Shown here in pieces: positions 22,573-47,765 of a stretch of 64,000 nucleotides of DNA; the stretch's first letter is position 1; each line of letters begins with the position of its first letter. The notes beneath the pieces were generated by a model. It worked only from the letters and a program-made list of their open reading frames with translations. It did not search any database and had not been told where the DNA came from. The position numbers and the translations under genes are program-made. The DNA comes from a bacterium (GTDB taxonomy: Bacteria > UBP7 > UBA6624 > JBBIMK01): contig JBBIMK010000009.1 of the NCBI GenBank assembly GCA_037444445.1, forward strand, positions 6-64,005, written 5' to 3'.

Positions 22573-22616
22573 TCTCCCTGGGAGTGAAAAGATGCGGAGA
22601 ACGAAGGCTTCTTTCT

Positions 22617-22865
22617 TCAGTGTTCTATATCCTCTCGGGCTTCCCAGTAAGGGCAGTAGAAGGGATGGTCCTGAAGGAGCACCCGTCCATCAGAGTTTCT
22701 CATCACCGGCTCCATCATCGGATATTCCTCTCGCTTCCATCCTAAAAGATGGCAGGTTTCCTCTACACACAAAGTATCCTCCAGCCCTTGAACAGCATAC
22801 CCGCGCTCTTGAATCTCAAAATGTCTGCAGTTGATGCAGTGCTGAAGGATGGGTTTCATACCCAT
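22617..22865 (-). CDS. Small cysteine-rich protein (possible metal-binding), translationally coupled to the FBP aldolase/phosphatase gene
   Basis: 82 aa with Cys at CxxC (CINC), CVEETC, CPY. Its ATG overlaps the upstream TGA (TGATGG). Function unknown. Confidence 0.4.
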   Translation of the reverse strand: MGMKPILQHCINCRHFEIQERGYAVQGLEDTLCVEETCHLLGWKREEYPMMEPVMRNSDGRVLLQDHPFYCPYWEAREDIEH

Positions 22866-23965
22866 CAGGATTCTTTCTGAAACCGGTCCTTCAGCCTTTC
22901 AATAATTTGTGGGATGGTGGTGTATTCCATATTGGGAAGGGAAAGGCGGTGGGGTTCAAAAGGTCCATGAAGGCGCATATAAGAGGCAATTTCACCGGCA
23001 AAATAGCGGGAATTGTCAAAGGCAGGGTCGTCAAACAGGTCCACAGGACCCACCAGTTGCCCATTCGCCAGTTGAAATCCTGCAGAAATCACCCGGGGAG
23101 GTCCGTCAAATCGGCTGGTCTGGGCTTCCCGAAAGGGCACGGGGAAAAGGGGTCCAAAGTGGCTCCCCCGATTCCACCCTTCCACCAGATGAGGGAAGGC
23201 AAAGGCTTCCAGGATTTCCCCCACAGCAGGCAACCCGGCTTGCGCCCGAACTATCAGAACCGGGTCATCCTTCCCTACATACTTCCCCGCTATCAAAGCA
23301 AGTTTCTGCGTGGAGGCAGAGGCGCAAACCATTCCACCTCTGGTGAATACCTTCCGGACAAGATACCGCTCCACTGCTCCAATCAATGCCAGCAAATCAT
23401 ACATCTCTTCCGGGCAGTTGAGGCGAATGCTCTGATTTTCTTCTATATCCAGGATTTCAAACTGGAAGCCATCGTGCATTTTGGGGTCAATCACCAGGCC
23501 AGCGGTGCAGAAAGGGTCGGCAAACATACGATATACAGGAAGATTCCAGGCGCCCGGTGAACATTTATCCCCCATAAAAATCACCACCGGCTCTGATGGG
23601 CGTTCCTCTATTTCCATCTCCGCTACCCCCGGTCCTAAACCTTTCACATTCCCGCTGAAGGCATCTTTCAGAAGGTCCTGCCCTGCCCCATACAACTTCA
23701 ACTCCTTCGCCACCTCCGTGCATCCGACAAAAGTATCCCAGGCGATTTTGTGAATCTGCTCGCTATTTTCACCCATTTTATGAGTGAGAATCAATTCCAG
23801 GTCATCCCCGCAGGACATCACACAAAAATCAACAAGAACCCCTTTTTCCTTGTGAGCCTGAAGTTGCTCCTCAGCGGTGTCAATCAGGTCTTCGTGGATA
23901 TGCGAGTGCCCCACATACCCCCCCACATCTGCTTTAATCACACTCAGCGTTATTTTTTCAGCCAT
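22865..23965 (-). CDS. fbp: Bifunctional fructose-1,6-bisphosphate aldolase/phosphatase (archaeal-type, class V FBPase)
   Basis: N-terminus MAEKITLSVIKADVGGYVGHSHIHEDL matches the hallmark FBPA/P N-terminus, with family-wide similarity over about 366 aa. The internal ATG at 23965 was chosen; AAGGAGGG Shine-Dalgarno lies 7 nt upstream. Confidence 0.88.
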   Translation of the reverse strand: MAEKITLSVIKADVGGYVGHSHIHEDLIDTAEEQLQAHKEKGVLVDFCVMSCGDDLELILTHKMGENSEQIHKIAWDTFVGCTEVAKELKLYGAGQDLLKDAFSGNVKGLGPGVAEMEIEERPSEPVVIFMGDKCSPGAWNLPVYRMFADPFCTAGLVIDPKMHDGFQFEILDIEENQSIRLNCPEEMYDLLALIGAVERYLVRKVFTRGGMVCASASTQKLALIAGKYVGKDDPVLIVRAQAGLPAVGEILEAFAFPHLVEGWNRGSHFGPLFPVPFREAQTSRFDGPPRVISAGFQLANGQLVGPVDLFDDPAFDNSRYFAGEIASYMRLHGPFEPHRLSLPNMEYTTIPQIIERLKDRFQKES

Positions 23966-24497
23966 CCGGCATCCCTCCTTTCGTTCTTCGTCCATACTCA
24001 TTATAACAAATTGTGGATGAGCGTTCGCAGTAACCCGCCCGAGATTTTTCCTCACTCTATGAAATGAAACTTTATCCCGACCCACTCGTGATTCCTGAAA
24101 CCAGGTATGTCATTTTCTGATTATTCCTATTGTCTACTTCCTGAATTTCGTGGTTGAGGATATTCCTCACCTCCTTTCCATAAGAGGAATGGAAGAATAC
24201 GCACGAGGGATTTTACCTGACCATTTGACTTTGGAATAATTTTGTAGTCATATTATCGTGCTCATGCTATGAGATTTGATAAGGGAAAGAGGAAGCCTTT
24301 TATGACAATGAGGGGGCAGGGAGAAAGTGGTAGGGTGCCGGGTTTTATCTCCTCCTTATGCCTTTGCTTTTCTATATCTACCCCCCCCCGTATAATCGCC
24401 TTTTCAACCCTTTCTGCTGGCTCATCCCTAAAATTCCTCTCTTTTTGGGAACTTTCTGGCAAAAAAGGAAGTCCACTTTATCAGGAGGTGGTAAAAT

Positions 24498-26918
24498 ATG
24501 AAGCGAGGGAAGGTGGGAATTCTGCTGAAGGCAATCTGGGGCGCCTTCCTGTTGTATGCACTTTTTTCCTGCGGCGGAGGGGGTTCCGCTACTACACCTG
24601 CGCCTGCGGCCCGAAGCCAGAAAATAATAGTGCCGTTTTCGGCGGGAAGAGGTGGTTTGCCGAGCAGCTCCCATAGAACTGCAATGACGAACCCGGCTGA
24701 GAATGCGACAGATACAACCAGCTCATCCCTGCCTCCAGCGACCCTGACACAGGAAGGTTTGCTGGAAGGACCGCCGGATTGGCGAGTCAACGAGCATCTT
24801 CCCTCTGTCCCGTTCCCGGAGTCGTTTCTCTGGGAGTTTGTGGATTCCCGGGGCCGCGCTTTCACGGAAACCGGCAGGGCTCACATAAATGTGCGGGAGT
24901 TCGGGCTTGTCCTCAGGGACTCCACGACACTGTTTCAATTGTCAGAACTGCTTCACCTCACGGATGCGTCCATATTGGGCGCAAGCCCAAAGATGAAGAT
25001 GCTTTTTGTGCGCCTCAAACAGCGACGGAATCTGGACGAATATCTCGCCTTGCTGAATCGTTTAGAAGAAGACCCCCGAGTGGAGAGGGTGATTCCGCAA
25101 GTGACTGTGTACAAAGCCTCAGCGCTCGTTCCTACTGATGAAGCAGACTGGCGCTGGGAAGTCAGTCCAGGTGGAGGCAACTGGAATTTTGAGGCAGTAA
25201 GAGTGCCCCAGGCATGGAGCCTTATGGGCTGGATTTACAGGAGACAGAATCTGGTCACCGGGGGCATCGTAGACGAGGGTTTTTTCCTTCACCCAGACCT
25301 CTCAATGAACCATGAGGAATTGAACGGTGCCAATCCAAGACTTGACAATCATCATGGAACCGGAGTTGCTGGAGTGTGGGCTGCCCTATGGGGCTCCACC
25401 GTGCAACAGAGATGGCTGGACGGAGTGCTACCGAACTCTATTCTGACCCTGTGGGGTTTAACGGGGCGAAATGTGCCGCCCCGCGGACCCGGTGACCCTC
25501 GCTGGCCCCCTCCCTGCGACATTTTCGGGCCCCAGGATGACTACGGCAAACAGTGTCTCTTCTGGCTCCAATTGTTAGATGACCTTTTCTCACAGAACAA
25601 GTTTCTGGACCTGCACCCGGAAATCAGCGTCCTGAATCTCAGCATCGGATATGGGTGTTTGTTCGCAGGCGATGCGGCGGATCCTCCCGGTAACCCTCCT
25701 GACGAGCGAGCCCGTCAAATCGCTGAGATGCTGGGCAGGGATTTTGCGCACCACTTCCAGAGCCGGGCAGACACTCTTCTACTGTTCCAGGCTGCTATGA
25801 ACTGCTACCTGAGGCGCCTGGATGAAGCCGAGGACGATGCCCGCTGGAATTCTCCCTCCTGCTATGCGTCCATAGTGGGCGACCCCACCTCCAATCCCCC
25901 TGTGCCACCCCAACAAAACATCATCTGCGTGGAAGCCACGAAGAACGCGGCGGGTTATCCGCTCGCCGGTTTCTCCAATGTGAGCGGGCAACTCTCCGCC
26001 CCGGGAAATAGCGTCACAGTATTGCTTGGAGTAGATGAAACAGCCGGGACTTCCGGCACATCCTATGCCAGCCCGCTATCCGCCGGTGCGGCATCCCTTC
26101 TGAAGTCATTCCGTCCGAGCCTGACGGTGACGCAGATTCGTCAGGCGCTTCTGACCTATTCCCGCTCCACGCCGGCAAACCAGCCTGAACCTCGGCGCGC
26201 ACCGATGCTGGATGCCTTCTACGCTCTCACCGGGCTGGACCTGATGGCAGGAAATACCGATGTCCAGAGGGAACTGGTGGATGCGGATGATGGGACGGTG
26301 GACGGGAACCTGCGGATGAGGGTATTCACCAGCGACCCGAACCCGGATGATGTTCACGCCATCCCGCCCGGAGGAACAACCCCAGACCACCGACGCGGGG
26401 ACGGGTATGTGACCCCACGCGATTTCCGCACCTTCCGGGATGTCTTCCTTCAGGTTCGCTCTGTGGAGGATGCCAATCTCGCTCCGCTCATCTCTCTGGA
26501 CGGTTCTGCGACGCATTTCAAGAGGGATTTGAATATGGACGGATGTTTGAGGGCGAGGGCGGATGCCTGCGACCCCAGCACCAATCCCTGCGTCCCCGCC
26601 AATCCCCCACACCCGGTGGACATCCCTACTCCCACCAACTGCTCGGCAGAAACCGGCGCTCCGGTGGAGAATGTCTATCCCCGGTATGATTTCAACGGGG
26701 ATGGGAGAATCACGGCTAATGCGGTCAATCCCGCCTCCGGCGATGTGGCGCCGTTCAAGATTGACCCGGACACCCACTGCACCGGGCTCAACCAGCCTGC
26801 CGGATGTCTGCGGGATATAGATGTGATGGCGCAGGTGTGGGATGCCTCTTCCTGCGAGCTTCCCGCCGGAGAATCAGCCGGTTGCCCGTCAGCACTATAT
26901 AGAGAATGTGGGCAATGA
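24498..26918 (+). CDS. Subtilisin-like (S8) serine peptidase lipoprotein with C-terminal Ca-binding dockerin/EF-hand-like repeats
   Basis: GGAGGTG RBS, then a signal peptide with lipobox LFSC. S8 triad motifs are present: Asp region GGIVDEG, His HHGTGVAG, Ser GTSYASPLSAG. Downstream are D-x-D/N-x-D-G loops (YDFNGDGRI, DLNMDGCLRA). Confidence 0.75.
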   Translation: MKRGKVGILLKAIWGAFLLYALFSCGGGGSATTPAPAARSQKIIVPFSAGRGGLPSSSHRTAMTNPAENATDTTSSSLPPATLTQEGLLEGPPDWRVNEHLPSVPFPESFLWEFVDSRGRAFTETGRAHINVREFGLVLRDSTTLFQLSELLHLTDASILGASPKMKMLFVRLKQRRNLDEYLALLNRLEEDPRVERVIPQVTVYKASALVPTDEADWRWEVSPGGGNWNFEAVRVPQAWSLMGWIYRRQNLVTGGIVDEGFFLHPDLSMNHEELNGANPRLDNHHGTGVAGVWAALWGSTVQQRWLDGVLPNSILTLWGLTGRNVPPRGPGDPRWPPPCDIFGPQDDYGKQCLFWLQLLDDLFSQNKFLDLHPEISVLNLSIGYGCLFAGDAADPPGNPPDERARQIAEMLGRDFAHHFQSRADTLLLFQAAMNCYLRRLDEAEDDARWNSPSCYASIVGDPTSNPPVPPQQNIICVEATKNAAGYPLAGFSNVSGQLSAPGNSVTVLLGVDETAGTSGTSYASPLSAGAASLLKSFRPSLTVTQIRQALLTYSRSTPANQPEPRRAPMLDAFYALTGLDLMAGNTDVQRELVDADDGTVDGNLRMRVFTSDPNPDDVHAIPPGGTTPDHRRGDGYVTPRDFRTFRDVFLQVRSVEDANLAPLISLDGSATHFKRDLNMDGCLRARADACDPSTNPCVPANPPHPVDIPTPTNCSAETGAPVENVYPRYDFNGDGRITANAVNPASGDVAPFKIDPDTHCTGLNQPAGCLRDIDVMAQVWDASSCELPAGESAGCPSALYRECGQ

Positions 26919-27717
26919 TTCCGGGGACGAAAACAATGACCCCTTTCAATGCGACTCCACCTGGAGGTGGCAGCCCCGCCGATACCTCCTTGCTGACCGG
27001 AACAGCGACCAGAGAATAGATTACCTGTATTCCGTGGATTTACATTTTTCGGGGGCGGCGCTTCCCTCTTCAGGAGCCCCCTCTATTCTCATCGTTGTCA
27101 AATCCCGGATGCCGGATGGGAATAGGCAGGATGATGATGGAGATGGGATGATAGATGAACCCTATGACCGTTCCTTCACCCGGCACATTCGGATTCCTGC
27201 CAGTGAGTGGGCATCCCAGCGGCTGGTGCTCACCGTTCCTATCTATTCCCTCGTCGCACAGGACCCACCGCCGCCGGACCAGTTAGGGAGAATTCGTGTA
27301 TCGGTCAAAGGGGTGAGCATCCAGCCTTCTTGCTGGGAATATTTCCCCCTTCATTACGGGCAGGATGTGGCGGTGCCGCCCCGGCAGGGCGTTGACCCCG
27401 CCACCCCCTGCCCTTCCCCTCCCACCCGGGCCATACACCTCGGGGGTCCCAACGACCGGCTGTATAAAATCCTCACCTTACCTGACGGCGGTTATCTGGC
27501 GGTGGGCGGCACCTACACAATGGCAGGTGGAACCCCACCAGATATGTGGGTTTTCCGGCTGGGAAGCGATGGCAATGTTGTGTGGGCGAAAGCCTATGGA
27601 GACCCCCATATGGGCAACATTTATTTTGGCAAACAGGATAGCGCAACGACTGCCGCAATTATCCTTCAGGTTCCCTACAGACTCCAGCAAGCCTCTATAA
27701 TAGCCAGAAGCCAATAG
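26827..27717 (+). CDS. Probable frameshifted continuation of the S8 peptidase (Ca-binding repeat / beta-rich C-terminal domains), or a separate overlapping ORF
   Basis: Frame +1 relative to the peptidase. The first stop-free codon is at 26827, right after an in-frame TGA at 26824. It overlaps the peptidase ORF by about 90 nt and has no signal peptide of its own. It carries the same kind of acidic Ca-loop motifs (NDSGDENND, ADRNSDQRIDYL). Confidence 0.4.
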   Translation, partial: WRRCGMPLPASFPPENQPVARQHYIENVGNDSGDENNDPFQCDSTWRWQPRRYLLADRNSDQRIDYLYSVDLHFSGAALPSSGAPSILIVVKSRMPDGNRQDDDGDGMIDEPYDRSFTRHIRIPASEWASQRLVLTVPIYSLVAQDPPPPDQLGRIRVSVKGVSIQPSCWEYFPLHYGQDVAVPPRQGVDPATPCPSPPTRAIHLGGPNDRLYKILTLPDGGYLAVGGTYTMAGGTPPDMWVFRLGSDGNVVWAKAYGDPHMGNIYFGKQDSATTAAIILQVPYRLQQASIIARSQ

Positions 27718-27845
27718 CGATTGGCGAATGGCAGATTCAGAAACAGTGAGATTTTGCAGGCAACACAAGAGTGCAAACCGTCTCTGCACGCCCCTGCCTG
27801 ATATTCGTTTGATTCGTTGAATCCTGCGACCTTTGCTCCGAGCGA

Positions 27846-28451
27846 TTAAGGGTAATACTTGACCCGAACCCCTGCGAGGTAAGTGTCCACTATCGTTTTG
27901 GTTTTCAGGCTATTCGTCCGATAAACATAATATAACTGGTCTTTGATGTAAGGTTTAATACGCTCAAAAGTGAGTTCCGACGGCTTTAATCCGTAGGTCT
28001 TCATCAGAGTTTGGTTCCATACCTCTTTATTTTCCTCATAATATCTGCGAACCTCCTCATCCGTGGGCTCCAGCAGGGAACGAAAGAGAGCGTCTTTGAG
28101 CAATTGATTCCGGATATACTGGCGATAATCTTCGTCCGTTAAACCCCTTTCTTTCAGCCATTGCTGGTAGTGCTGGAGGTTCTGGAAGCGTTCCGAGATG
28201 TCTCGCGACAGGGCTTTATCCACCGTGGAATCCGAAACGCTGAAGCCCCGGGCGACCGCGGCGCGAACCAGGACAAAATCCTGCACATATTCGTCCAGAA
28301 ACCGCTGGAATGATGGGTCCTTTACCAGGTCCTCGGTTAGTATAGGAACCTCGTTAATCCACAGTATTGGACGGGCAGTGGGCCCACGGCACGAACCCCA
28401 TAAAACAAAAAAGGCTATGACCCCCAGCGGTTTCAAAACCCTCATTTTCAT
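27846..28451 (-). CDS. Periplasmic SurA-N-terminal-domain-like chaperone (no PPIase domain)
   Basis: Signal peptide, then a helical region resembling the SurA/PpiD N-terminal chaperone domain. Overlaps the upstream stop by 4 nt. Confidence 0.5.
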   Translation of the reverse strand: MKMRVLKPLGVIAFFVLWGSCRGPTARPILWINEVPILTEDLVKDPSFQRFLDEYVQDFVLVRAAVARGFSVSDSTVDKALSRDISERFQNLQHYQQWLKERGLTDEDYRQYIRNQLLKDALFRSLLEPTDEEVRRYYEENKEVWNQTLMKTYGLKPSELTFERIKPYIKDQLYYVYRTNSLKTKTIVDTYLAGVRVKYYP

Positions 28452-31279
28452 TTCTCCTCTCCCTCCTTAGAAATCGGGATAACCCCGGCATCCAGCCAGG
28501 GACTCCAGAAAAGTAAAAGACTGCCCCGCTCCATTGATGTCCCGCGATATGAAATTCTCATTCTTCTTTCCCCTTTTACTTCCTCCAGCCAGAGCACCAC
28601 CTCATTTCTCCCAATTTCCATGCCCTCCTCCGGGGTAAGACCTGTAATTCCATAAAATTCTACTCCTGTTGCATGGCGGATGTGAACACATAGAAAAGGG
28701 AGTGGCGCTCTTGGAACGAGGGAAAGGAAAAGAGAAGAGCCATTCACATCTGATTGAAATTCCGTTCTGACCTCCAGCAAAGAAGGAGAAAGGGAAGTGC
28801 AGGAGGCTGAGGTAGGCTTGCCCAGATGTCTATCGCGAAGGGCTTCCTCAGGAAACAGAGTGCACCGCACAGGAGGCTTTCCCTCTATCACGGGCTGAAC
28901 CACAGAGCGGAGATAATCACTCATAGGGAAATTCGCAGGAAGCAGTGGAAGAGGAGAAATTTCAGAGGCTTTCTTCAGGAGAAAATGGAATGGGAAAGCC
29001 GATGGAAGAATAGAGAAAGTTTTCATTCCAGGGGGTCGCAGAAGAGAAAAAACAGCGGTGGCAAACGGACTGTAAGCGGTAGGTTCTTCCGGCAGGAAGG
29101 CACCGGCTTTCGCTACCACGCCCTCATCCACTGCCTGCCCTTTCTCCTGCAGCGCTCTTAAAGCCAGTAGCGCCCATGCGGTGGCCTCTACATTTCCCTT
29201 CTTCATCGTTCGCAAAAAATGAAACCCCCCGTCCGACTGTTGAAACCGATAAAGCCAGCGGAGCAGGATAGAGTCGGAAAATTCCCTATCCGGGAGGAAG
29301 GAACGGGTGAGCAAATTCAGAAACGAAAAATCTTCAGAGCCTGCAGAAGCCGTAGAGACTTCCGCAATAGATTGAGAAAACAGGAGCGGTTTCCCTTCCA
29401 CTGAAAAGGCCCGGATGGTAATCGGCCAGGATGGGTCAACAGAATTCATCGGGAGAACCCTCTGGAATGAGGTTCTTTCGCCCTTCCGCAGGTCCACCCG
29501 CACCGGCACATCGCTACGAACCACCAGAGTGGGGTCTGAAACTGTGGAGGGTAAAAAATCCGCCTCCAGCCTTTTCTCCTGAGTATCAGCGATGGAAGAT
29601 AGGCGAACCTGAGTATAAATGCCCTCAGGAACCTGTAAAATTCGCGATGTGAATGCGTAAGAACCCCCCGCAGGCTCAATCAGGCTCAACCGATAATAGC
29701 CCGGCGAAGGTGGTAGCGAGATCCGTGTTTTCTCATCACCTGAAATCGGCTGAAGCAAAAATGCTGATGACAGTCCAGAGGATGAAAAGACAAAGGTGGA
29801 GTGCTTTTCCACTCTCAGGGTGGAAAGAGGAAGGGGAGGTGGAGTTCCCCCAAGGAACTCCGTCAGGCGGAAGGAAGGAGGAGTCAGTAAAAGCCATCCC
29901 TCTTCTACCTCCGGATGCTGAACCGTTAGCAGGGCTCCACCCAGAAGCACCTCCTCGGTCTGATAAGTCAAAGTCGGTGGCGGAATATTCGCCACCGGCA
30001 CGAAGGTCTGTTGAACCTGCAATCGGCCAGATTCCACCCATTCCTCACTCATCCAGAAGCCCGGTGCATAGGCTTCCGCAAGGGGCAGACGAACCTCCTG
30101 CCCCGGCTTGAAAATGCGAATGCCATCAGGCAAATAAAAATAAATCGTCTTGAAATCTGAAGGAGGCAAACTGTAAACCCCTCCGCTATTCAGGGAAGAA
30201 TCTTCCTCTCCGGTGAACTTCCAGAAATACTCCTCTCCATCTCCTTCAAGCCAGACAAAAGAATAGGGGCTGGATACAGTGGATAAGGGGGGTGCAAGAG
30301 TTATTTTCCCCGAAGTCCGGGAGTCAAAAATTCGGGTGGACGAAATCCATTCCTTTTCTCCATCTTTTATTCCATACACCGCAACCTGAAAAGGCCGGGG
30401 TGCACGGGGAAAGTAACTCAATCCCTCGCCGTCCGAGGTTAACGGTGGAAGTAGAAGAAATCGGGAGGGCTGGATGATTTCCACCCTGTAAGGCTCCCTC
30501 CCATACCCCTCCAGTTGCACTTCAATTTCTTCATCAAAAGGCTGGGGAAGGTGAAAAAACTGGAGTAAGGAAGAAACGGGAGAAAAGTAGAACAATCTCC
30601 GGGAAGAATCAAAAATCCTGAAAGAGCGGTGCTCTCCACCCCGCAGGAGTAAAGAAACTGCCCTCTCATCAACGGTATAGACCCCATCCGGAGAAACGCC
30701 CTCAGGAGCCGATGGAATTTCTATCGGAAGTTCATCTATGTCTTGCCCTTTCTGAACCCTGAGGATAGAGCCTGCGGGAACCATATCCAGTGAAACTTTT
30801 CCGCCTCCATCCGTTAGCCCGAATAGAAGTTTTTCCTGCTGGAAGAAGAGAGAAAAGGACACACTTCCCACCGGTTTTCCTGTTCTTCGCTCCACCACTT
30901 CCAGATAGAAATATCGCCCTGTTGGGTGGAGTATCATAGATAGGGAAGTAATCAAAAATGTCCGAACCGCTTCGCAGGCGCCGGATTGGAAAATTGTGCG
31001 ATAATATCCTCGTTCCAGGGGCTTCTTCAGCGGTCCCGGGAAGGGCCCGGAATAGAGAGACTCAAATCCTCCCTCATCCTCCAGAAATTCTCCCTCCCAT
31101 TTTTCTACTTGAATCGTGAACGGTGGAGGGCAGGGAGGTTCACCCAGGGAAATCGTTTCACCGGGTGAAAAACGCCAGAGAGATGAAGCAGGGGTGGAAA
31201 CAGAAGCCACAGAACCTGCCATTAGAACCGCTAACCACCAGAGTGGAATTCGTGAAATTGAAAATGGGAGGGGTGTCAA
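28448..31279 (-). CDS. Large secreted alpha-2-macroglobulin-like / prenyltransferase-squalene-oxidase-repeat (alpha/alpha-toroid) protein
   Basis: 943 aa with a signal peptide. N-terminal beta-rich modules. C-terminal region has the QxxDGGF repeat (LLRWLYRFQQSDGGFHFLRTMKKGNVEATAWALLALRA) characteristic of the A2M thioester domain and of terpenoid-cyclase-like toroids. No CxEQ thioester motif was found. Confidence 0.45.
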   Translation of the reverse strand: MTPLPFSISRIPLWWLAVLMAGSVASVSTPASSLWRFSPGETISLGEPPCPPPFTIQVEKWEGEFLEDEGGFESLYSGPFPGPLKKPLERGYYRTIFQSGACEAVRTFLITSLSMILHPTGRYFYLEVVERRTGKPVGSVSFSLFFQQEKLLFGLTDGGGKVSLDMVPAGSILRVQKGQDIDELPIEIPSAPEGVSPDGVYTVDERAVSLLLRGGEHRSFRIFDSSRRLFYFSPVSSLLQFFHLPQPFDEEIEVQLEGYGREPYRVEIIQPSRFLLLPPLTSDGEGLSYFPRAPRPFQVAVYGIKDGEKEWISSTRIFDSRTSGKITLAPPLSTVSSPYSFVWLEGDGEEYFWKFTGEEDSSLNSGGVYSLPPSDFKTIYFYLPDGIRIFKPGQEVRLPLAEAYAPGFWMSEEWVESGRLQVQQTFVPVANIPPPTLTYQTEEVLLGGALLTVQHPEVEEGWLLLTPPSFRLTEFLGGTPPPLPLSTLRVEKHSTFVFSSSGLSSAFLLQPISGDEKTRISLPPSPGYYRLSLIEPAGGSYAFTSRILQVPEGIYTQVRLSSIADTQEKRLEADFLPSTVSDPTLVVRSDVPVRVDLRKGERTSFQRVLPMNSVDPSWPITIRAFSVEGKPLLFSQSIAEVSTASAGSEDFSFLNLLTRSFLPDREFSDSILLRWLYRFQQSDGGFHFLRTMKKGNVEATAWALLALRALQEKGQAVDEGVVAKAGAFLPEEPTAYSPFATAVFSLLRPPGMKTFSILPSAFPFHFLLKKASEISPLPLLPANFPMSDYLRSVVQPVIEGKPPVRCTLFPEEALRDRHLGKPTSASCTSLSPSLLEVRTEFQSDVNGSSLFLSLVPRAPLPFLCVHIRHATGVEFYGITGLTPEEGMEIGRNEVVLWLEEVKGERRMRISYRGTSMERGSLLLFWSPWLDAGVIPISKEGEEK

Positions 31280-32457
31280 ATACTCCCGACCATGGCATCA
31301 TCCGGCCGGTCAAACGGATAGACTTCAATTTCCGTCTTTTTCGCTTCCCGCAGAACCTGAAGTTTTAACTTATCATCCGGTCCTAACTGTCGGATGTTCA
31401 GCGCCAGGTCTCGTGGACTTTTATACAGGATTTCCTCGGTCACCAATTGGCCAGCGGGGGATTGGCGCGTGAACTTGGCGCCCAGGATAATGTCACCCAC
31501 CCGAAGCCCACGCTTGGCCGCAGGTCCTTTGAGATCCACAGTATCCACGATAATTCCTGCATCCTTCTCTATCCATTCTTCAGGCATACCGGCGAAAATC
31601 CGAAGGAGTTTCGTGGTGGGTGAAGCGATGACCCCAAACCAGGGGTGATAGATTTTCCGTCCCGCAATTAAATCAAAAGCATACTGCCGAAGGTCATTGG
31701 AAGGGAATACAATGTTCAAATTCTGCACTTCCCGCACCAGTTCTGTGGGAATGATAGTGGATTGCTCCACTGCCAGGGCATTGATGCCCAGCACCTCACC
31801 TCGCATATTCGCCAGCGGTCCTCCCAGATTGTATAGGTAAAAGCGAGCATCCGTCTGAATCACCTTCGGAACGAAGTAATCCCAGTTCATGTAGTAATCC
31901 CGAACGGAACTAATGACACCCACGGATGCGGCTACCGTTTCCCCCAGCGGATATCCGAGAGCCAGCACGGTTTCTCCCGCTTGAACTGCGGAGGAATCTC
32001 CGAAGGTAACAGCGGGGAAAGGACCCGGGCCCAGAATCTGGATGATGGCGAGGTTATTCCAGCGGTCATAATTCGCCAGACGGGCGGGCAGAATCCGCCC
32101 GTCGTGGAGGCGAACCTGCATTTCCTTCGCCCCCTTCACCTGTGTATACAGCGTAACCGCATACCCCTCGGGTGATACGATGAATCCTGAAGTTCCACCC
32201 TGGGCTATCAGACGCTGGAAGGAGCGACGAAACACGGGCGACTGATATAATGTCGTCACCACTTCCACAGACACCACCGCCGGCGCTACCTTCTCCACTG
32301 CTTCCACGAAGGCAAAACTTCCAGGGTCAAACACATAGGTGGGAGTCATTGCAGAGCAAAAAAGCAACAGGCTTACTCCCACCACCCAGAAGATGGAACT
32401 CTTCTTCCCCCGGCTATCCATCTTTTCACCCCTTTCCCGCCATTGGCTCCCAGCCAT
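31276..32457 (-). CDS. HtrA/DegP-family pseudo-protease with PDZ domain (catalytic triad replaced)
   Basis: Trypsin-fold + PDZ architecture. The His box reads VTLYTQV (no His). The Asp box reads NNLAIIQI (Asp to Asn). The Ser box reads YNLGGPL instead of GNSGGPL (Ser to Leu). Confidence 0.7.
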   Translation of the reverse strand: MAGSQWRERGEKMDSRGKKSSIFWVVGVSLLLFCSAMTPTYVFDPGSFAFVEAVEKVAPAVVSVEVVTTLYQSPVFRRSFQRLIAQGGTSGFIVSPEGYAVTLYTQVKGAKEMQVRLHDGRILPARLANYDRWNNLAIIQILGPGPFPAVTFGDSSAVQAGETVLALGYPLGETVAASVGVISSVRDYYMNWDYFVPKVIQTDARFYLYNLGGPLANMRGEVLGINALAVEQSTIIPTELVREVQNLNIVFPSNDLRQYAFDLIAGRKIYHPWFGVIASPTTKLLRIFAGMPEEWIEKDAGIIVDTVDLKGPAAKRGLRVGDIILGAKFTRQSPAGQLVTEEILYKSPRDLALNIRQLGPDDKLKLQVLREAKKTEIEVYPFDRPDDAMVGSI

Positions 32458-32466
32458 TTCTTTGCC

Positions 32467-33669
32467 TCAAACGGTTCCCCCGGCGCCCGCAGGGGGCTGG
32501 GGCTGCTCTTCTATCCGCAAAGTCACCAGTCGGAACACACCGCCCCGCCGAATGAAAAATTCCACCGAGTCCCCCACTGACATACTCCGAATCATCTTCC
32601 GAAGTTCAAAGGCATCTTTGTATACTTTCCCGTTAACGGAGTAAATCACATCCCCGGCGGCAAGCCCCGCCTGCTCCGCCGGCGAGCCCGGAAAAACCCC
32701 CTTGATTTTTACCGGATATTTCATTCCCTTGTAAAATTCATCTAATCTCAGAATCTCTTCCTTGATATAACGCTGAATATCCTGCTGTGGATTAAACCCC
32801 TGCTCTACACCGGGCCAGCCACCGATATAAGTAGGATTCCTCTCCTGAGGGGTCCAGAAGATGAAGAGCCCTGCCCACGGGTAAATCACCCGCCCGTATT
32901 TTAAGATGTCTTCCGCACTCTTCTTCGCATCGTTGATGGGGTAGAAAAGATTTTGTGCCTCCATCGCACTGGAACCCCAGGAGTTAATCCCAATCTGCTC
33001 GCCCCGGGCATTAAAAGTGGCTCCCCCGCTGTTACCGGCATTGATGGTGGCCGTGGATTGAATTATCCAGGTGAGTTCCTTACCATAGTCCGGATTATTG
33101 AAAACATCCTCCGCACTCATCAGCGGAAATGGATATTCAAAATCCTTCACAATACCCACCGTTACAGTGTTCACCAGCTGGAACTCTTTGAGCCGGAATC
33201 CCGGGTTGAATTGCTCAATCATAAATCCTAAGGAGGCATCGCCGGGAGAGCCAATGGCGAAAACCAGGTCATTTTTCTGAATCTTCTCAGAATCCGCCAG
33301 GTCTACATACGGGAAGACTCTGGGTTCCGGGGTGATGATTTTCACCAGGCCGAAATCCACCTTCACATTAGTGCCCACCACTTTCCCGGGAAGCACCTCC
33401 CCATTATCCAGAGTAATATCTACGAGTTTAGCGGAGGTGACCACATGCCAGTTGGTGTAGATATAGCCATCCGGCGAGACGATGGAGCCGCTTCCTCCAC
33501 CCCCCCCTGCTCCACCGGGGCTCCGATGTAACACCCGAACCATGGCAGGCTTCACTTTCGCCACCACCGGCGTCAGGTCCATCGTCGCTATCCCTTCCGC
33601 TCCCTGCTCCTCCGTTGCTTCCAGCGACAGCACCATAAAAGAAAGCAAAAGGATAGAAAGTTTTTTCAT
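32467..33669 (-). CDS. htrA: HtrA/DegP-family serine endoprotease with PDZ domain (catalytically intact)
   Basis: Signal peptide MKKLSILLLSF. His box YTNWHVV, Asp box VDFGLVKI, Ser box GNSGGATF, C-terminal PDZ. The ATG at 33669 overlaps the upstream stop (ATGA). Confidence 0.8.
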   Translation of the reverse strand: MKKLSILLLSFMVLSLEATEEQGAEGIATMDLTPVVAKVKPAMVRVLHRSPGGAGGGGGSGSIVSPDGYIYTNWHVVTSAKLVDITLDNGEVLPGKVVGTNVKVDFGLVKIITPEPRVFPYVDLADSEKIQKNDLVFAIGSPGDASLGFMIEQFNPGFRLKEFQLVNTVTVGIVKDFEYPFPLMSAEDVFNNPDYGKELTWIIQSTATINAGNSGGATFNARGEQIGINSWGSSAMEAQNLFYPINDAKKSAEDILKYGRVIYPWAGLFIFWTPQERNPTYIGGWPGVEQGFNPQQDIQRYIKEEILRLDEFYKGMKYPVKIKGVFPGSPAEQAGLAAGDVIYSVNGKVYKDAFELRKMIRSMSVGDSVEFFIRRGGVFRLVTLRIEEQPQPPAGAGGTV

Positions 33670-34706
33670 CTTTTCATCCCTCCTTTCCACTCGGCGATGG
33701 TCACATCTCGCTCAAGGATGCGGCCATCCCGCCAGATTTTCACTGAAAAAGTATCCCCGATATTCAACTGATTCACAGGAATCCAGAAGTCCTGAGGCAG
33801 GGTAAGAGATTTCCCCCCCAGTTCCAGCAGGAAATCGTTGGCACGAATCCCCGCTTTATCGGCTGGACTCCCCTCATCTACGAAAGTAACAAATAGTCCA
33901 TAATCATACGGGTATCCGTAGCGGGTTCGCTGGGTGTCATCCACCACCAGCAAAGATACCCCGGTCCAGGGGCGGGCGAATCGCCCCTTCTCCACTATCT
34001 CCTTCACCACTCTCCGCACCGTATTCACCGGAATGGCAAAGTGCAAGTATAATTCCTTATATTGCTGACGCAGGAAAGTAAGAACCCCCACCACTTCTCC
34101 TCGGAAATTCAAAAGAGGTCCCCCCTGCATTCCGTAGGAAATAGGGGCATCCGTTTGAATAAAGGTAGTCACTCCACCTTCCGCCCAGGGTCCCGCGGTG
34201 GGCAGTGCAGAAAGTATCCCGAAAGAAGGTGTGAACAGCCCATTTGAACTCACACCGACGGCAATCAGAGGCTCACCCACTCTCGGTGATTCGTTCTCGG
34301 GCAGGAAAGGAACCGCGGTCAGTTTCTCCGCCCGGATGCGAACCACTGCCACATCCGTCGGCTCATCCATTCCCAACAGCACCCCCTCATAACTTTTCCC
34401 ATCTGAAAGAATCACCTGGATATAACGGGCATACTTCAAGGTTTGAGCCGTCGTGAGTATATATCCCTTTTTGTCATCAAAAATGAATCCAGAGCCTACT
34501 TCCGTAAGGGTTGCGTCACCCAGAATCCCTCGCTTACGCTCTAAAAAACGAACCTTCACCTGCACCAGAGCCGGTAACACTCCGTTGGAAATATCATTCA
34601 TCCGCTGGGCATAAGGATGTATTTCCCGGGGCACGGTGGTGCCGAAAAGGAACACCATACAGACCCCCCCCACCAGTCCAGCCATTTTCAGCCTGAGTCC
34701 TTTCAC
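33666..34706 (-). CDS. HtrA/DegP-family pseudo-protease with PDZ domain (His and Ser replaced)
   Basis: The His box reads LTTAQTL (His to Gln). The Asp box PTDVAVVRI is retained. The Ser box reads GMQGGPL (Ser to Gln). Signal peptide and PDZ domain are present. Confidence 0.7.
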   Translation of the reverse strand: MKGLRLKMAGLVGGVCMVFLFGTTVPREIHPYAQRMNDISNGVLPALVQVKVRFLERKRGILGDATLTEVGSGFIFDDKKGYILTTAQTLKYARYIQVILSDGKSYEGVLLGMDEPTDVAVVRIRAEKLTAVPFLPENESPRVGEPLIAVGVSSNGLFTPSFGILSALPTAGPWAEGGVTTFIQTDAPISYGMQGGPLLNFRGEVVGVLTFLRQQYKELYLHFAIPVNTVRRVVKEIVEKGRFARPWTGVSLLVVDDTQRTRYGYPYDYGLFVTFVDEGSPADKAGIRANDFLLELGGKSLTLPQDFWIPVNQLNIGDTFSVKIWRDGRILERDVTIAEWKGGMKR

Positions 34707-34719: not shown

Positions 34720-35091
34720 TCATTCCAGTAATCCTGTAACTTCCTGTTTTCCGGAGACCTTCAAATTATTGATCACATCCCTCACCTTCTCCACACCTCG
34801 GGCAAGGGCCTCTGCTTTTTTCTTCTGCTCCTCCGTTTCCAGCTCCCCATCCAGGATGACCACCCGATTCTTCACCGTAATTTTCACATTTTTCAACTGA
34901 AGGGCAATATAGGGGTCAGAAGCGAGGCTCTCCAGCACAGTGGTCTGGATGGCCATATCAATGCTTTCCACCGCCATATGCTGGGGCGCCAGAGAAGTTC
35001 TCTCCCGCATCGTCCTCCCCTTCCCCTCACACGCCACTCCCATTCCTATCGCCAGCACCAGCGCCACAAGTACACTCCCTCTCATCGCCAT
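34720..35091 (-). CDS. BON-domain (OsmY-like) periplasmic protein
   Basis: 123 aa with a signal/lipobox-like N-terminus. BON-domain pattern: LKNVKITVKNRVVILDGELETEEQKKKAEALARGVEKVRDVINNLKV. Confidence 0.7.
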   Translation of the reverse strand: MAMRGSVLVALVLAIGMGVACEGKGRTMRERTSLAPQHMAVESIDMAIQTTVLESLASDPYIALQLKNVKITVKNRVVILDGELETEEQKKKAEALARGVEKVRDVINNLKVSGKQEVTGLLE

Positions 35092-35151: not shown

Positions 35152-36492
35152 TCAGACGGAAAGCCCCCGCAAAAGGCTTCGGTCAGGGGTAAACGCCGAG
35201 GCCGCCTGGGCTGCATAATTCTGCACCAGGTAATATCCCACCCCTCCCACCACCAGCGCAATGAACACCACAGAAATCAGCAAGGCTCCCACGGCATTCC
35301 CCCGTCGCATATGCCCGAATTCCGCCAGGGCCACGATGGTCAAATACAGCCCCCACAGAAATAGAATTCCTGCAAGCCCATACAGGACAGCGGAGCCCGA
35401 AAGAAATGCCATGTCCCCCGCATATCCAGAGAGAAAAAAAGGCACAAACAGGAAGGATGACCCCTTCCAGACCCAGGGAAAGGTGGTATATTGTCGGAGT
35501 ATCACCAGAGCGAGGAAGAAACTCACGGAGTAGACCAGCCAGAGAGCCAGAACAAGGAAAGGAATGAGGTAAGGCCCATAAGTGAGCATTTGCTCATACG
35601 GCTGGAGAGCACGGCGCCGAACATCATACAGAAGCGCCTGCCTCATATCCTCATCCTTCGTCATCTGGTTAATGGCTGACACAGATTGTATCTGAGCCTG
35701 AGTCATAACCATCTGGTCAAAGTTTGCCATCAAATTGTCCGCATTTTGAAACATTCTTGCCGAGGTCAGAGAGCCCGTAAGCAGGACGATAAACAGGGGG
35801 TAAAGGAAAGTGGCTCCTCGGGCGGTGTCCCGGAAAACATCCCCGGGTGCTACCACCAGCCGATAAAGGTCCACCCAGAAATCTTTCCACAAAAAAATCA
35901 AAATAATCAACGCCAGAAGAACCATAGAGAAAGCACCCATATTCCGTCCCGTGACCGTCCAGAATGGGGTTGCCCAGACCAAACGGTAGTTCCCGGTGAA
36001 TTTCAGCGTCCGAAAAATTTGGTCCACTCCTTTAACATCGGATGAGAACTCTGCCGCCGGCGCCTCATACCGGAAGAGATAATCCTTCAGAACCGTTGGA
36101 ATCGCTGCCACATATATCCGCACTGAAGCGCTCTCCTTCCGAGCCTCCAGGATTTTCACATACTGCCCATCCACCCGTAAAAGCCCTGCATCCGAAACCT
36201 TGAACCCCTCCTTTTCCAGTCCTTCCCGGAGAGCCTTCACTTTCCGGTCCGTTGCCTCCACAGGCCGGTCCAGGAGCTCTTCCTCGGTGGTAATGGTCAA
36301 AGTGGCTTTTCCAGAGAATTTCAGCACGAGAGTTCCCTTCTCCTCGGTAACGGAGAGGGAGGAAGGGTGACGAAAAAAAAGCCCCCATTCTGTGTTGTAA
36401 TAAGGGGTCGTGCCAAAATTCTGCAATACCGTGCACCCGGACAGCACTCCCACAAAAGATAACAAAATCCAACCTCTCCTCTTCGCCATCAC
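35152..36492 (-). CDS. Lipoprotein with periplasmic domain and C-terminal multi-TM (Yip1-like) domain, function unknown
   Basis: Lipobox LSGC, then about 180 aa that are predicted soluble, then 5 or more hydrophobic helices. Confidence 0.45.
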   Translation of the reverse strand: MMAKRRGWILLSFVGVLSGCTVLQNFGTTPYYNTEWGLFFRHPSSLSVTEEKGTLVLKFSGKATLTITTEEELLDRPVEATDRKVKALREGLEKEGFKVSDAGLLRVDGQYVKILEARKESASVRIYVAAIPTVLKDYLFRYEAPAAEFSSDVKGVDQIFRTLKFTGNYRLVWATPFWTVTGRNMGAFSMVLLALIILIFLWKDFWVDLYRLVVAPGDVFRDTARGATFLYPLFIVLLTGSLTSARMFQNADNLMANFDQMVMTQAQIQSVSAINQMTKDEDMRQALLYDVRRRALQPYEQMLTYGPYLIPFLVLALWLVYSVSFFLALVILRQYTTFPWVWKGSSFLFVPFFLSGYAGDMAFLSGSAVLYGLAGILFLWGLYLTIVALAEFGHMRRGNAVGALLISVVFIALVVGGVGYYLVQNYAAQAASAFTPDRSLLRGLSV

Positions 36493-36640: not shown

Positions 36641-36666
36641 GTGGGCGAGCCGACAGGCTCGCCCAC
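36641..36666 (-). terminator. Strong stem-loop downstream of groEL (possible terminator/processing site; no U-tract)
   Basis: GTGGGCGAGCC gaca GGCTCGCCCAC: perfect 11-bp stem, 35 nt after the groEL stop. Confidence 0.3.
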
Positions 36667-36701: not shown

Positions 36702-38324
<1,623 letters not shown>

Positions 38325-38340: not shown

Positions 38341-38631
38341 TTAATCTTCCACGATGGCGAGAATGTCATCTTCCCGGAGGATTAAGTATTCATCCCCCTT
38401 ATACCGAACCTCATTCCCGCCATATTTGGAAAACAGCACCTTCTGCCCTTTCTTCACTTCCATGGAGGCTCTCTGCCCATTCTCCAAAAGCCTTCCGGGT
38501 CCCACCGCAATCACCTCACCGAGGATGGGCTTATCCTTCGCTACATCCGGTAACACGATGCCGCCTTCACTGACGGCTTCCTTCTCCAGACGCTTCACCA
38601 CAACCCTGTCTCCTAACGGCTTTAACGCCAT
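38341..38631 (-). CDS. groS: Co-chaperonin GroES (Cpn10)
   Basis: 96 aa, LKPLGDRVVVKR...GEVIAVGPG...VKKGQKVLFSKYGG. Confidence 0.95.
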   Translation of the reverse strand: MALKPLGDRVVVKRLEKEAVSEGGIVLPDVAKDKPILGEVIAVGPGRLLENGQRASMEVKKGQKVLFSKYGGNEVRYKGDEYLILREDDILAIVED

Positions 38632-38707: not shown

Positions 38708-39361
38708 TCAAAAACCCTGTGTCAAGTCCTTCCAGTTACCTCTGGTTTCCCACTCATATTCCAGAATTTGAATGGTTGCTCCTTCCTTCTGAAAGGTTTT
38801 CAGCAGGCGGAAGTTCCACTCGGCCGCCGCCAGCACCGGATTCCCCTGCCAGGGCTCCTGATAGGAAAATCCATAATGGGGATGATAGGTGAGCATCATC
38901 AACCGATACCCGGGGTATCGGATGGGACGAGGAACCACCAGCCCCAGCAAATCCACCACTTCGCAGTCGCAGTAATACCCTAAATACCCGATGTCTGTGG
39001 AAGAAACGGAAATGGGGGGCTGACCATTCTCCTTCAGCCACTCCGCCGCTTCCTTCTTCAATTCACTCTTCGTTTTGTGTTCCTGAAGTTCATCCCACAG
39101 CCCGGCGGAATGCTCCAGAAAAGACGGAAGCAAGGCAATGCCAGCCAAAACAAGCCCGAATCCAGCCGCTGGCTTCCATTTCCCCAGCCATTGCCATACT
39201 TTCCCTGTTCCGATACTCACCAGCAAAAGATAAATCGGATAGATGGACATAAAGTACCACGGCGCTATGAGAGCGTGGGTGATGGAGAAAAACACTAAAA
39301 AAGTCCAGTGCCACACCATCAGCAACAGCCCTTCATTTCTTCTCGCCACGATAGAATACAT
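38708..39361 (-). CDS. C-terminal fragment of a GT39/GT83 (PMT/ArnT-like) membrane glycosyltransferase
   Basis: Its frame is open upstream through the C8 tract at 39455-39462 and would join the N-terminal fragment after a 1-nt change in that tract. Confidence 0.55.
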   Translation of the reverse strand: MYSIVARRNEGLLLMVWHWTFLVFFSITHALIAPWYFMSIYPIYLLLVSIGTGKVWQWLGKWKPAAGFGLVLAGIALLPSFLEHSAGLWDELQEHKTKSELKKEAAEWLKENGQPPISVSSTDIGYLGYYCDCEVVDLLGLVVPRPIRYPGYRLMMLTYHPHYGFSYQEPWQGNPVLAAAEWNFRLLKTFQKEGATIQILEYEWETRGNWKDLTQGF

Positions 39362-39449: not shown

Positions 39450-40301
39450 TCATACCCCCCCCTGTGGGTGAATGAAATACTGGGACAGAAGCGAGGTATC
39501 TAAAGACCCCATCGCCCCCATCTTCAATCTCCAGATAACATCCGATAAGTCCTTTTTCGCAAGGAGAGGCTCCGGCAGGAGAACTCCATAATATCCATAA
39601 ATCAAAAGGGCAGTCAGAAATGAAAAAAGCCCCAAAAATAGCAGGGTTTTCATTCCCCTTTTCCAGTTTTGATAAAAAAGAAACAGGATTGCCGAGGCAT
39701 CGTAAAATATGGCTTCCGGTCGTGTGAGAACCATTGTCAGCATCACTAAAGACAGGTTGAAAGGCTCTGCCTTCTTCCTCATAAGAACGAGAAGCAGGAA
39801 AAACAAAAAGTGAAAAAGTGGCGTTTCCATCCCCGAGGCTTCAAAAATATGAAAGAAGGGATTCCAGGTGAAAAAAAGGAGGGCAATGGTGGCTGTGCCT
39901 CTTCCCCATTCTTCTTTCACAAAAAAATAGAGGAGGATACAGGTGAATAGAAAAAAAAGCCAGTTCAGGAGGTAAGCCGAAAGAATTCCTTCTACCCCGA
40001 TAGAAATCAGTCCAGCGTTCAACAGCATAAAAAGGGGTGCAGAGGTTCCGAAAATCCGCATCCCCGGATTGAACACCGCCCCCAGCCCATCCGCCAGGTT
40101 CCGGGCATATCGCAGGGTGATCAGAGCATCGTCCGTGGGATATTGAACCAGAACATACGCCAGCAAACGAAGAACCGCACCCGTAAGAATCAGCAGGATT
40201 GCCGTCTTCTCTGTTTTCCAGTATTTCTTTACCTGACGAGTGATTATTTTTCTGCCTGTGCAAATATAAGAAAAACCTGCTATGTGGAAGAGCACACCCA
40301 T
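39450..40301 (-). CDS. N-terminal fragment of a GT39/GT83 (PMT/ArnT-like) membrane glycosyltransferase
   Basis: Multi-TM protein. A first-loop motif YPTDDALITLRYARNLADGLG resembles the DE/DD catalytic loop of ArnT/PMT enzymes. The ORF ends ...HPQGGV* immediately after a G8 run on the coding strand. Confidence 0.55.
   Translation of the reverse strand: MGVLFHIAGFSYICTGRKIITRQVKKYWKTEKTAILLILTGAVLRLLAYVLVQYPTDDALITLRYARNLADGLGAVFNPGMRIFGTSAPLFMLLNAGLISIGVEGILSAYLLNWLFFLFTCILLYFFVKEEWGRGTATIALLFFTWNPFFHIFEASGMETPLFHFLFFLLLVLMRKKAEPFNLSLVMLTMVLTRPEAIFYDASAILFLFYQNWKRGMKTLLFLGLFSFLTALLIYGYYGVLLPEPLLAKKDLSDVIWRLKMGAMGSLDTSLLSQYFIHPQGGV
39455..39462. repeat. Homopolymeric G8/C8 tract at the junction of the two glycosyltransferase fragments
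   Basis: cccccccc at 39455-39462. Changing the tract to 7 or 10 fuses the two ORFs into one reading frame of about 530 aa. Confidence 0.8.
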
Positions 40302-42684: not shown

Positions 42685-42817
42685 AAAAACACCTCCTTTT
42701 TTCCGTCAGGGAGAAAAGGAAGCCCGCTTTTTCAGGGAGAACCCTGTGGGGCGCCCTTTCTTTTTTATCTCTCTTCAATGCAGGCTTCCCTTCCTCTCTG
42801 CACGGAATTTTTATTCC

Positions 42818-43987: not shown

Positions 43988-44081
43988 CGCGTATCACCTC
44001 CTTTCAGATTCTTGTTGTTCTCTTTCATTTTTTGGGTTCCTTCGTTTTACCGCCTTTCATCCTCGGATAACGAAGTAGCCT

Positions 44082-47747: not shown

Positions 47748-47765
47748 TTCAGCACCACCTCCATA

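Follow-up and report, generated by a model that had tools for sequence, protein, structure and literature searches.

A candidate envelope-chaperone operon with one intact and two triad-less HtrA homologs in an uncultured bacterial clade

What would a bacterium gain from keeping two HtrA homologs that lack the catalytic triad on either side of a single intact copy? The question is raised by a stretch of 64,000 nucleotides (nt) of contig JBBIMK010000009.1 (GenBank assembly GCA_037444445.1), referred to here as the window, in which three HtrA-type genes lie in tandem on the minus strand (31276–34706). They were designated HtrA-C, HtrA-B and HtrA-A in the order of their transcription (C, B and A for short; Table 1). 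The analysis reported here indicates that this triplet is most likely the core of a conserved periplasmic protein-quality-control operon of an uncultured bacterial clade, one that appears to be missing from the GTDB representatives.

Triad loss and its conservation across lineages

An earlier note on this DNA, made from the letters alone, had described the locus as one live protease flanked by two dead paralogs, all with a trypsin fold and a PDZ domain. The three open reading frames (ORFs) were found where that note had placed them, and profile searches bore out their architecture: each protein matched Pfam Trypsin_2 (E 2e-22 to 6e-23; 80–83 bits against a cutoff of 27.6) and contained a single PDZ domain (PDZ_2), and phmmer searches against the PDB returned E-values of 1e-26 to 1e-37. 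Scores with NCBIfam TIGR02037 (Do family) were 163, 169 and 203 bits, well under the cutoff of 416, and all DegS, DegP and DegQ equivalog scores fell far under the respective cutoffs (DegS, 98–157 against 423 bits). Judged by the TIGR02037 scores, HtrA-A, HtrA-B and HtrA-C are divergent HtrA subfamilies. Putative N-terminal hydrophobic leaders were seen in all three proteins and in their orthologs.

The positions of the triad were established by residue-by-residue alignment with MucD (8k2y), Legionella DegQ (4ynn/3pv2) and Escherichia coli DegQ (4a8a). In HtrA-A, the His box TNNH reads TLYT (TLY-T105-QV in place of TNxHV), with Thr105 at the position of the His, the Asp box TDVAV reads NNLAI, with Asn135 for the Asp, and the Ser box GNSGGPL reads YNLGGPL, with Leu211 for the Ser and Tyr209 for the oxyanion-hole residue equivalent to Gly193 of chymotrypsin. 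HtrA-C retains Asp118, while its His box reads TTAQ instead of TNDH (Gln88 for His) and its Ser box GMQGG instead of GNSGG (Gln194 for Ser). The boxes TNWHV, VDFGLV and GNSGGA of HtrA-B are intact (His82/Asp112/Ser221). A triad test for family S1C, using the boxes TNxHV, D[LIV]A[VL] and GNSGG, was passed by HtrA-B alone and failed by A and C. The substitutions thus fall on the true catalytic boxes, and the triad of each copy had been described accurately. On the strength of these alignments, HtrA-A and HtrA-C are homologs of HtrA by descent and not peptidases, and HtrA-B is a member of the family. An H-D/E-S triad was present in 249 of the 263 other HtrA relatives retrieved, and a dead triad in none of the 112 complete generic HtrA matches to HtrA-A, one further match (P0050) being truncated before the His box; in this sample, loss of the triad is rare in the HtrA family.

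HtrA-A had seven close homolog clusters (97–43% identity) among 5.8 billion proteins, past which scores fell sharply to generic DegQ/DegP-like proteins at 31%. For HtrA-C, four close clusters were found among 1.84 billion representatives, together with a few remoter C-like dead proteins. The triad was absent from all close A and C homologs found. Scans of genome and metagenome contigs with loose back-translated patterns of the HtrA-A orthologs returned only generic HtrAs (26–36% identity). The ortholog-bearing contigs come from independent sources: L001/L002 from NCBI assembly GCA_054402855.1 ('bacterium JZ-2024 1'), L003/L004 from JGI 3300045950, L005 from Logan SRR22388033, L006 from JGI 3300010938, L125/L126/L123 from ENA ERZ24794640 and GCA_014384545.1, and L128/L129 from GCA_015492955.1. 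Wherever a locus was long enough to judge (8 of 8: the window, L006, L001, L003/L004, L005, L125/L126, L128/L129 and L124), all three paralogs were present in the order C-B-A. The last of these, L124 (JGI 3300017992), is more distant and has a C-like dead, a B-like live and an A-like dead gene in the same order behind a CheA-like gene, and on the short contigs L122 and L127 a C-like dead gene comes after a BON-like gene.

The genes are closely packed. An overlap of 1–4 nt between the stop codon of HtrA-C and the start codon of HtrA-B occurs in six of the eight loci, or in five of seven lineages if the window and L006 are counted as one. In the window, the overlap is ATGA, with a GGAGGG Shine-Dalgarno sequence just upstream, the real start of HtrA-B being likely the ATG at 33669. 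Spacing between B and A is 25–45 nt, with a 4-nt overlap in L125, and HtrA-A overlaps the next gene both in the window (TTGA) and in L001. For HtrA-A in the window, the ATG at 32421 is the likely start and gives a protein of 381 amino acids (aa), the same as in the orthologs.

Across these loci, the triad of HtrA-B was invariant (H-D-S in 8/8 orthologs). HtrA-A showed the pattern [T/E/D/S/N]-[N/D/R]-[L/R/I] at the three triad positions, with Tyr or Phe at the Gly193 position in every lineage except the most distant one. An alignment of eight C-type sequences from the seven lineages gave [Q/S/M/R]-D-[Q/N], in which the Asp was invariant, Gln replaced Ser in seven of the eight and the Gly193-equivalent was retained in all lineages; in two further C cluster representatives, P0126 and P0159, the His is replaced by Ala, and in P0126 the Ser is replaced by Phe. 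The constancy of the Asp and the Gly193-equivalent in C, and of the Gln that replaces its Ser, could be taken to mean that A and/or C still hydrolyse substrates through a non-canonical site, using for example another nucleophile or, in C, Asp118 and Gln194. We consider this highly improbable, because the former His position varies freely in both proteins (Q/S/M/R/A in C; T/E/D/S/N in A), no other conserved residue stands out as a nucleophile, and the replacement of the oxyanion-hole Gly by Tyr or Phe in A is of a type shown to block catalysis in MamO (PMC4794232).

Loss of the triad, taken alone, would also speak for A and C being recently decayed, lineage-specific pseudogenes, a reading to which we give practically no credence. 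Both reading frames are full length, and the structural model of HtrA-A is of high confidence (see below). Ratios of nonsynonymous to synonymous substitution (dN/dS), calculated according to Nei-Gojobori between the window and its 90%-identical relative L006, were 0.097 for HtrA-A and 0.165 for HtrA-C, compared with 0.119 for the active HtrA-B, 0.069 for groEL and 0.221 for a 943-aa neighbour (dS about 0.5–0.8 for all genes compared), and were thus not elevated in the dead copies. Cross-lineage identities of A, B and C are alike, and orthologs with the same dead pattern are kept in related lineages down to about 30–37% identity, in independent metagenomes and metagenome-assembled genomes (MAGs), the triad being lost in all of them. 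The selection on the dead copies and the dead pattern shared across lineages refute the pseudogene reading and support the view that HtrA-A and HtrA-C are old, selected, non-catalytic paralogs with a predicted fold and PDZ domain retained.

A neighbour-joining tree (100 bootstraps) of the A, B and C orthologs with 27 generic HtrAs separated clades A (95/100), B (81/100) and C (87/100), and every lineage contributed a single sequence to each clade. The split into three must accordingly be much older than the separation of these lineages.

Hetero-oligomer or separate assemblies

We propose that the cassette encodes a periplasmic quality-control module with a hetero-oligomeric HtrA, in the simplest case a DegS/MucD-type C-B-A trimer made up of a catalytic subunit and two that serve as sensors or bind substrate, and consider the case for it to be evenly balanced. 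In such a module, translational coupling of the genes would keep A, B and C at nearly equal levels, and the three would assemble into a hetero-oligomer, most simply a C-B-A heterotrimer. Unfolded clients or C-terminal peptides would be bound by the dead subunits A and C, which would gate, in trans, the only active site of the complex, that of B. Support comes from the strict co-occurrence of the three genes, their fixed order and overlapping stop and start codons, and from subunit-specific conserved changes in those loops that carry inter-subunit signals in known HtrAs. It is from such features of the sequences that we infer physical hetero-assembly, regulation in trans and any role of the C-terminal tails of B and A as PDZ ligands.

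In DegS, DegP and HtrA2, loop L3 of one subunit signals PDZ or peptide occupancy to loops LD, L1 and L2 of the neighbouring subunit. The L3 loops of the dead copies are strongly conserved, each with a motif of its own (RDYYMNxDYFVP in HtrA-A, PTAGPWAEGG in HtrA-C), and HtrA-A has in addition a conserved insertion in L2 and an insertion of about 15 aa in the PDZ domain. In HtrA-B, LD has a conserved insertion of about 20 aa (GSPGD...[RK][ED][FW]QLVNTVT), L3 is longer, and about 30 aa are inserted ahead of the PDZ domain. A heterotrimer with divided labour would predict just this: sensor loops conserved in the dead subunits, and an elaborated LD in the live one. Substrate-cleft loops are retained in A and C (IQTDA, GGPL), and the carboxylate-binding loop of the PDZ domain, RGxLG in generic HtrAs, reads PWxG in all three proteins. 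Conserved tails ending in G-[ST]-hydrophobic follow the PDZ domain in B (EQPxxPxGAGGT[VILA]) and A (RPxDAxxG[ST][IVF]) only, HtrA-C being without one. Mapping of the trimer-lock Phe of HtrA1/HtrA2 (F149 of HtrA2) onto A, B and C initially suggested an aromatic residue in A, an acidic one in B and a basic one in C, a pattern in favour of a heterotrimer; because the N-terminal segment shifts in register by 1–3 residues from family to family, this comparison was rejected as evidence.

The long LA loop of DegP and DegQ is missing from all three proteins. An AlphaFold2 model of HtrA-A from an alignment of 64 sequences (predicted local distance difference test, pLDDT, 87.3; predicted template modelling score, pTM, 0.81) was nearest to MucD, peptide-bound DegS (template modelling score, TM, 0.86) and AlgW. 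The single PDZ domain, the short LA loops and the proximity of the model to trimeric DegS, MucD and AlgW make a DegS-like trimer a simpler assembly than a cage. The earlier note had suggested that the dead copies act as regulatory, scaffold or chaperone-only subunits of a hetero-oligomeric HtrA cage; the part of this suggestion that holds is the existence of conserved, selected, non-catalytic paralogs, in view of their dN/dS and dead orthologs. A hetero-oligomer with B is plausible, and a cage finds no support in proteins with one PDZ domain and short LA loops. The proposal can be taken further, to an obligate C-B-A heterotrimer with one active site, which would be the first natural HtrA with three different subunits. 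A and C would act in it as dedicated sensors; L3 loops, PDZ domains and the conserved tails of B and A would hold the trimer together and gate the enlarged LD of B, and the particle would dock, as a fixed station of envelope quality control, to two membrane-associated cassette proteins, one Yip1-like and one with a BON domain. We put this fuller version forward tentatively, as possible and somewhat short of even.

Several points weigh against hetero-assembly. To our knowledge, the HtrAs described so far are homotrimers. In work of Spiess et al. from 1999, protease-dead DegP alone was reportedly a competent chaperone, and since dead DegP works as a chaperone, retention of A and C could be explained by separate homo-oligomers too. 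The tails of B and A match no textbook class of PDZ ligand, and the last residues of HtrA-A are not in a beta-strand in the monomer model. Joint monophyly of A, B and C was unsupported (17/100), and the paralogs of the window are only 22–26% identical to one another, a lower value than for any of them against a generic DegQ. A 2016 review notes a single natural hetero-oligomer, Deg5/Deg8, and this one is built from homotrimers (PMC4877387). The bootstrap value and the paralog identities are also the grounds on which a clade-specific triplication or recent tandem duplication was rejected.

The chief competitor, in our estimate rather unlikely, is that A, B and C form separate homo-oligomers in one pathway. 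HtrA-A and HtrA-C would then be stand-alone holdases in the manner of 'S210A-like' DegP, which pass unfolded envelope proteins to B, to the SurA-N-like chaperone of the cassette or to the membrane, while B degrades clients that cannot be rescued. Protease-dead DegP is active as a chaperone, the dead copies have kept their fold, cleft loops and PDZ domain under purifying selection, and the operon is rich in chaperone-type genes (BON, SurA_N, and groESL upstream), all of which would fit holdases. Such an arrangement leaves unexplained, however, why there are two dead paralogs, each degenerate in its own conserved way and both always kept, why order and coupling with B are strict, and why B has a conserved insertion in LD, the receiver of the neighbour's L3 signal.

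The surrounding operon and its upstream region

The cassette around the triplet, common to the window and the ortholog-bearing sources listed above, consists of a Yip1-like membrane protein, a BON protein, C, B, A, a protein of 750–940 aa and a SurA-N-like protein of about 200 aa, in this order (Table 1). The Yip1-like protein, with orthologs in all cassettes, has a leader with a lipobox-like LSGC; its periplasmic domain measures about 170 aa, and its C-terminal domain is multi-pass. The BON gene lies directly upstream of HtrA-C in every cassette (L001, L003, L005, L006, L122, L123, L125 and L128), and SurA-N-like orthologs close the cassette in all lineages, L125 included. The SurA-N-like protein of the window has no peptidyl-prolyl isomerase domain, and its leader ends in WGSC; it and the BON protein are, from their leaders, probably lipoproteins. 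Since the accessory proteins mostly carry a hydrophobic leader followed by Cys, as lipoproteins do, the products of the cassette are expected to be exported to the envelope.

Table 1. Features of the HtrA cassette and its upstream region in the window (coordinates of the window)
Feature	Position	Strand	Remarks
SurA-N-like chaperone-domain protein	27846-28451	-	201 aa; Pfam SurA_N_3, E 1.4e-8; last cassette gene
Secreted fast-evolving protein, no family	28448-31279	-	943 aa; TTG start overlaps HtrA-A stop (TTGA)
HtrA-A	31276-32457	-	ORF 393 aa; last of triplet
HtrA-B	32467-33690	-	ORF 407 aa; sole catalytically intact copy
HtrA-C	33666-34706	-	ORF 346 aa; first of triplet transcribed
BON-domain protein	34720-35091	-	123 aa; Pfam BON, E 1e-14; hydrophobic leader then Cys
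Yip1-like integral membrane protein	35152-36492	-	446 aa; weak Pfam Yip1 match, E 2e-4, below cutoff; first cassette gene
GC-rich hairpin GGGCGAGCC-TGTC-GGCTCGCCC	36642-36663	-	no T-run; just past groEL stop
groEL	36702-38321	-	directly upstream of cassette
groES	38341-38631	-	directly upstream of cassette with groEL
CIRCE-like inverted repeat TTAGCGGTC-N9-GAGTGCTAA	38693-38667	-	just downstream of promoter, upstream of groES
Sigma-70 promoter TTGACA-18-TATAAT	38725-38696	-	12/12 consensus, upstream of groES

The large protein that follows HtrA-A had been called an A2M (alpha-2-macroglobulin)-like trap protein, a label that found no significant support. No Pfam or NCBIfam family was matched at E ≤ 0.01; with relaxed thresholds, five orthologs gave only sub-threshold matches to Prenyltrans (E 0.08) and BiPBP_C (E 0.027), and a profile search against the PDB gave fragments of E. 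coli A2M (ECAM) at a non-significant E of 0.68–1.4. None of six orthologs contained the CxEQ thioester motif, which is absent from some bacterial A2Ms as well, MagD among them. Like the bacterial A2Ms (E. coli YfhM/ECAM, Pseudomonas MagD), the protein is large and secreted; its N-terminal two thirds are predicted to be mainly beta, and the helical part after them contains one weak prenyltransferase-like (alpha/alpha-toroid) repeat. Unlike the bacterial A2Ms, it is only about half their length. Identity to its positional counterparts in L001, L003 and L005 is 22–30%, word-index searches returned only the protein itself and a 79% relative, and an AlphaFold2 model from a two-sequence alignment was unusable (pLDDT 29). 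The L125/L126 cassette is complete except for the large protein, which is therefore dispensable for the cassette and accompanies the triplet without being tied to it.

Upstream, the cassette is preceded by groES-groEL in the window, L006 and L123/L125/L126 and by SufBCD in L003 and L128; enolase and pyruvate kinase genes lie downstream of it in L001, L005 and L125. The inverted repeat behind the groES promoter, which resembles a CIRCE element (controlling inverted repeat of chaperone expression), agrees by eye with the consensus TTAGCACTC-N9-GAGTGCTAA at 16 of 18 positions and suggests HrcA-type heat-shock control in this bacterium. The spacer between groEL and the cassette is 209 nt, about 130 nt longer than in L006, and contains a hairpin that might serve for attenuation or as a site of RNA processing between groESL and the cassette. 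No convincing terminator was found within the cassette of the window. Heat-shock co-regulation of the cassette with groESL is plausible.

The same region bears on a further explanation of the dead copies, namely that A and C are negative regulators or decoys, competing for substrates or activating peptides or poisoning B trimers until stress occurs. Two lineages have the cassette directly downstream of groESL, in the window with a strong promoter and the CIRCE-like element, and the retention of substrate-binding elements and a PDZ domain in the absence of catalysis would suit a decoy. We nevertheless regard this explanation as improbable: no feature is specific to a decoy role, an inhibitor made in equal amount from the same operon would be an odd design, and MamO, the sole bacterial case studied, promotes rather than inhibits its active partner (PMC4794232).

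Other features were observed around the cassette. An 806-aa S8 subtilase-like gene with an overlapping or adjacent 291-aa ORF lies at 24498–27717 on the plus strand, between the SurA-like gene and the gene for fructose-1,6-bisphosphate (FBP) aldolase/phosphatase, and the G+C content is slightly higher (0.571) at 26001–28000. In L006, the SurA-like and FBP aldolase/phosphatase genes (13974–14579 and 14688–15788) are just 108 nt apart, indicating an insertion of about 3.6 kb in the window or a deletion in L006. An S8 peptidase with PKD domains and a Tricorn-N-like/PD40 beta-propeller protein recur near the cassette in different lineages (L125 1168–6032; L006 17438–18583), so that its neighbourhood may have a loose association with additional proteases of the envelope or secreted ones. 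At 21256–24085 (minus strand), a type V FBP aldolase/phosphatase, whose L006 ortholog matches PF01950 (FBPase_3), adjoins a multihaem cytochrome c554/c7-like protein; together with a Thi4-type thiazole synthase in L001, these lend the gene content a thermophile or deep-branching flavour. On the other side of groES, two adjacent multi-pass membrane ORFs without a Pfam match (38708–39361 and 39450–40301, minus strand) lie between it and a PilT gene and resemble the two halves of a larger membrane protein; the gene may have been split or frameshifted, or there may simply be two small genes. A type IV pilus/type II secretion system-like cluster follows at 41590–49568 (minus strand), with three unusually large proteins (364–389 aa) carrying N-terminal methylation motifs; its components include PilC (T2SSF), PilT-like ATPases (40339–41460 and 46605–47747) and a PilB/MshE-like ATPase, and a TgpA-like transglutaminase comes after it (49605–52028).

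Relation to known HtrA systems and significance

That a pseudo-protease is kept beside an active paralog is already known within the HtrA family. The closest parallel is MamE/MamO (also MamE1/MamE2) of magnetotactic bacteria, where, as in the triplet, an active and a degenerate HtrA are encoded together and kept by selection; such pairs arose three times in these bacteria, and MamO promotes MamE-dependent proteolysis, being required for the activity of MamE while its own triad is dispensable (PMC4794232). A residue other than Gly at chymotrypsin position 193 blocks the oxyanion hole of MamO, comparable to Tyr/Phe209 of HtrA-A (PMC4794232). MamO differs from A and C in its fused TauE transporter domain, surface di-His metal site, lack of a PDZ domain and role in biomineralisation; the triplet, for its part, has two distinct dead paralogs, both with a PDZ domain, in a general envelope chaperone operon. 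No TauE domain was found in A or C by Pfam scan, and NCBIfam MamO/MamE scores for the triplet were 40–87 bits against a cutoff of 800 (MamO, 62 and 40 bits for A and C).

The best structural matches to the HtrA-A model, DegS, AlgW and MucD, resemble the triplet in having a single PDZ domain, a short LA loop and a hydrophobic leader at the N-terminus. Their activation is driven by PDZ and L3, and the trans-activation from L3 to LD offers a ready mechanism for sensor subunits. DegS and AlgW, however, form homotrimers in which all three sites are active and which have a substrate of their own (RseA or MucA), whereas two of the three subunits proposed here lack a triad.

ClpP/ClpR and FtsH/FtsHi of cyanobacteria and plastids are cases in which dead paralogs are obligate ring subunits beside active ones; as ATP-dependent machines of unrelated folds, they are analogous to the triplet in design only. 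Within the Deg family, plant Deg7 uses a degenerate protease domain for oligomerisation (PMC3194040), although active and degenerate domains are there fused in one chain. HtrA paralogs in a defined 1:1 complex are found in Deg5/Deg8, where both triads are kept and the proteins associate as homotrimers, and inactive Deg paralogs have been noted in some cyanobacteria (PMC4877387). Deg7, Deg5 and Deg8 are eukaryotic or plastid proteins, unlike the bacterial triplet. Separately, the HtrA-like proteins P0128, P0134, P0135, P0145, P0154 and P0172 (584–2393 aa) match HtrA-C in at least two stretches, with degenerate triads in P0134 (A-N-G), P0154 (E-G-N) and P0128 (R-D-S); they may be fused HtrAs of other bacteria with several protease domains, some of them dead, in the manner of Deg7.

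New in the present locus is a live copy between two dead paralogs that differ from each other and were fixed long ago, all with a PDZ domain, in a translationally coupled HtrA array inside the general envelope-chaperone operon of an uncultured bacterial clade. No description of such an HtrA system was found in the open-access literature. HtrA proteases are textbook allosteric homotrimers, and the number of active sites and PDZ sensors that a trimer requires has been investigated with engineered mixed trimers of DegS and HtrA2. Engineered HtrA2 heterotrimers have revealed crosstalk between PDZ and protease domains in trans (bioRxiv 10.1101/2021.10.04.462974). If the hetero-oligomeric reading is true, the triplet would be a natural counterpart of the mixed-trimer experiment, with one catalytic and two differently degenerate subunits fixed over long evolution, and could reveal which functions (sensing, substrate holding, assembly) divide among subunits. 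The locus adds a bacterial, non-magnetosome case of pseudo-enzymes kept beside an active paralog and defines a compact set of 6–7 genes for envelope proteostasis, two components of which are uncharacterised.

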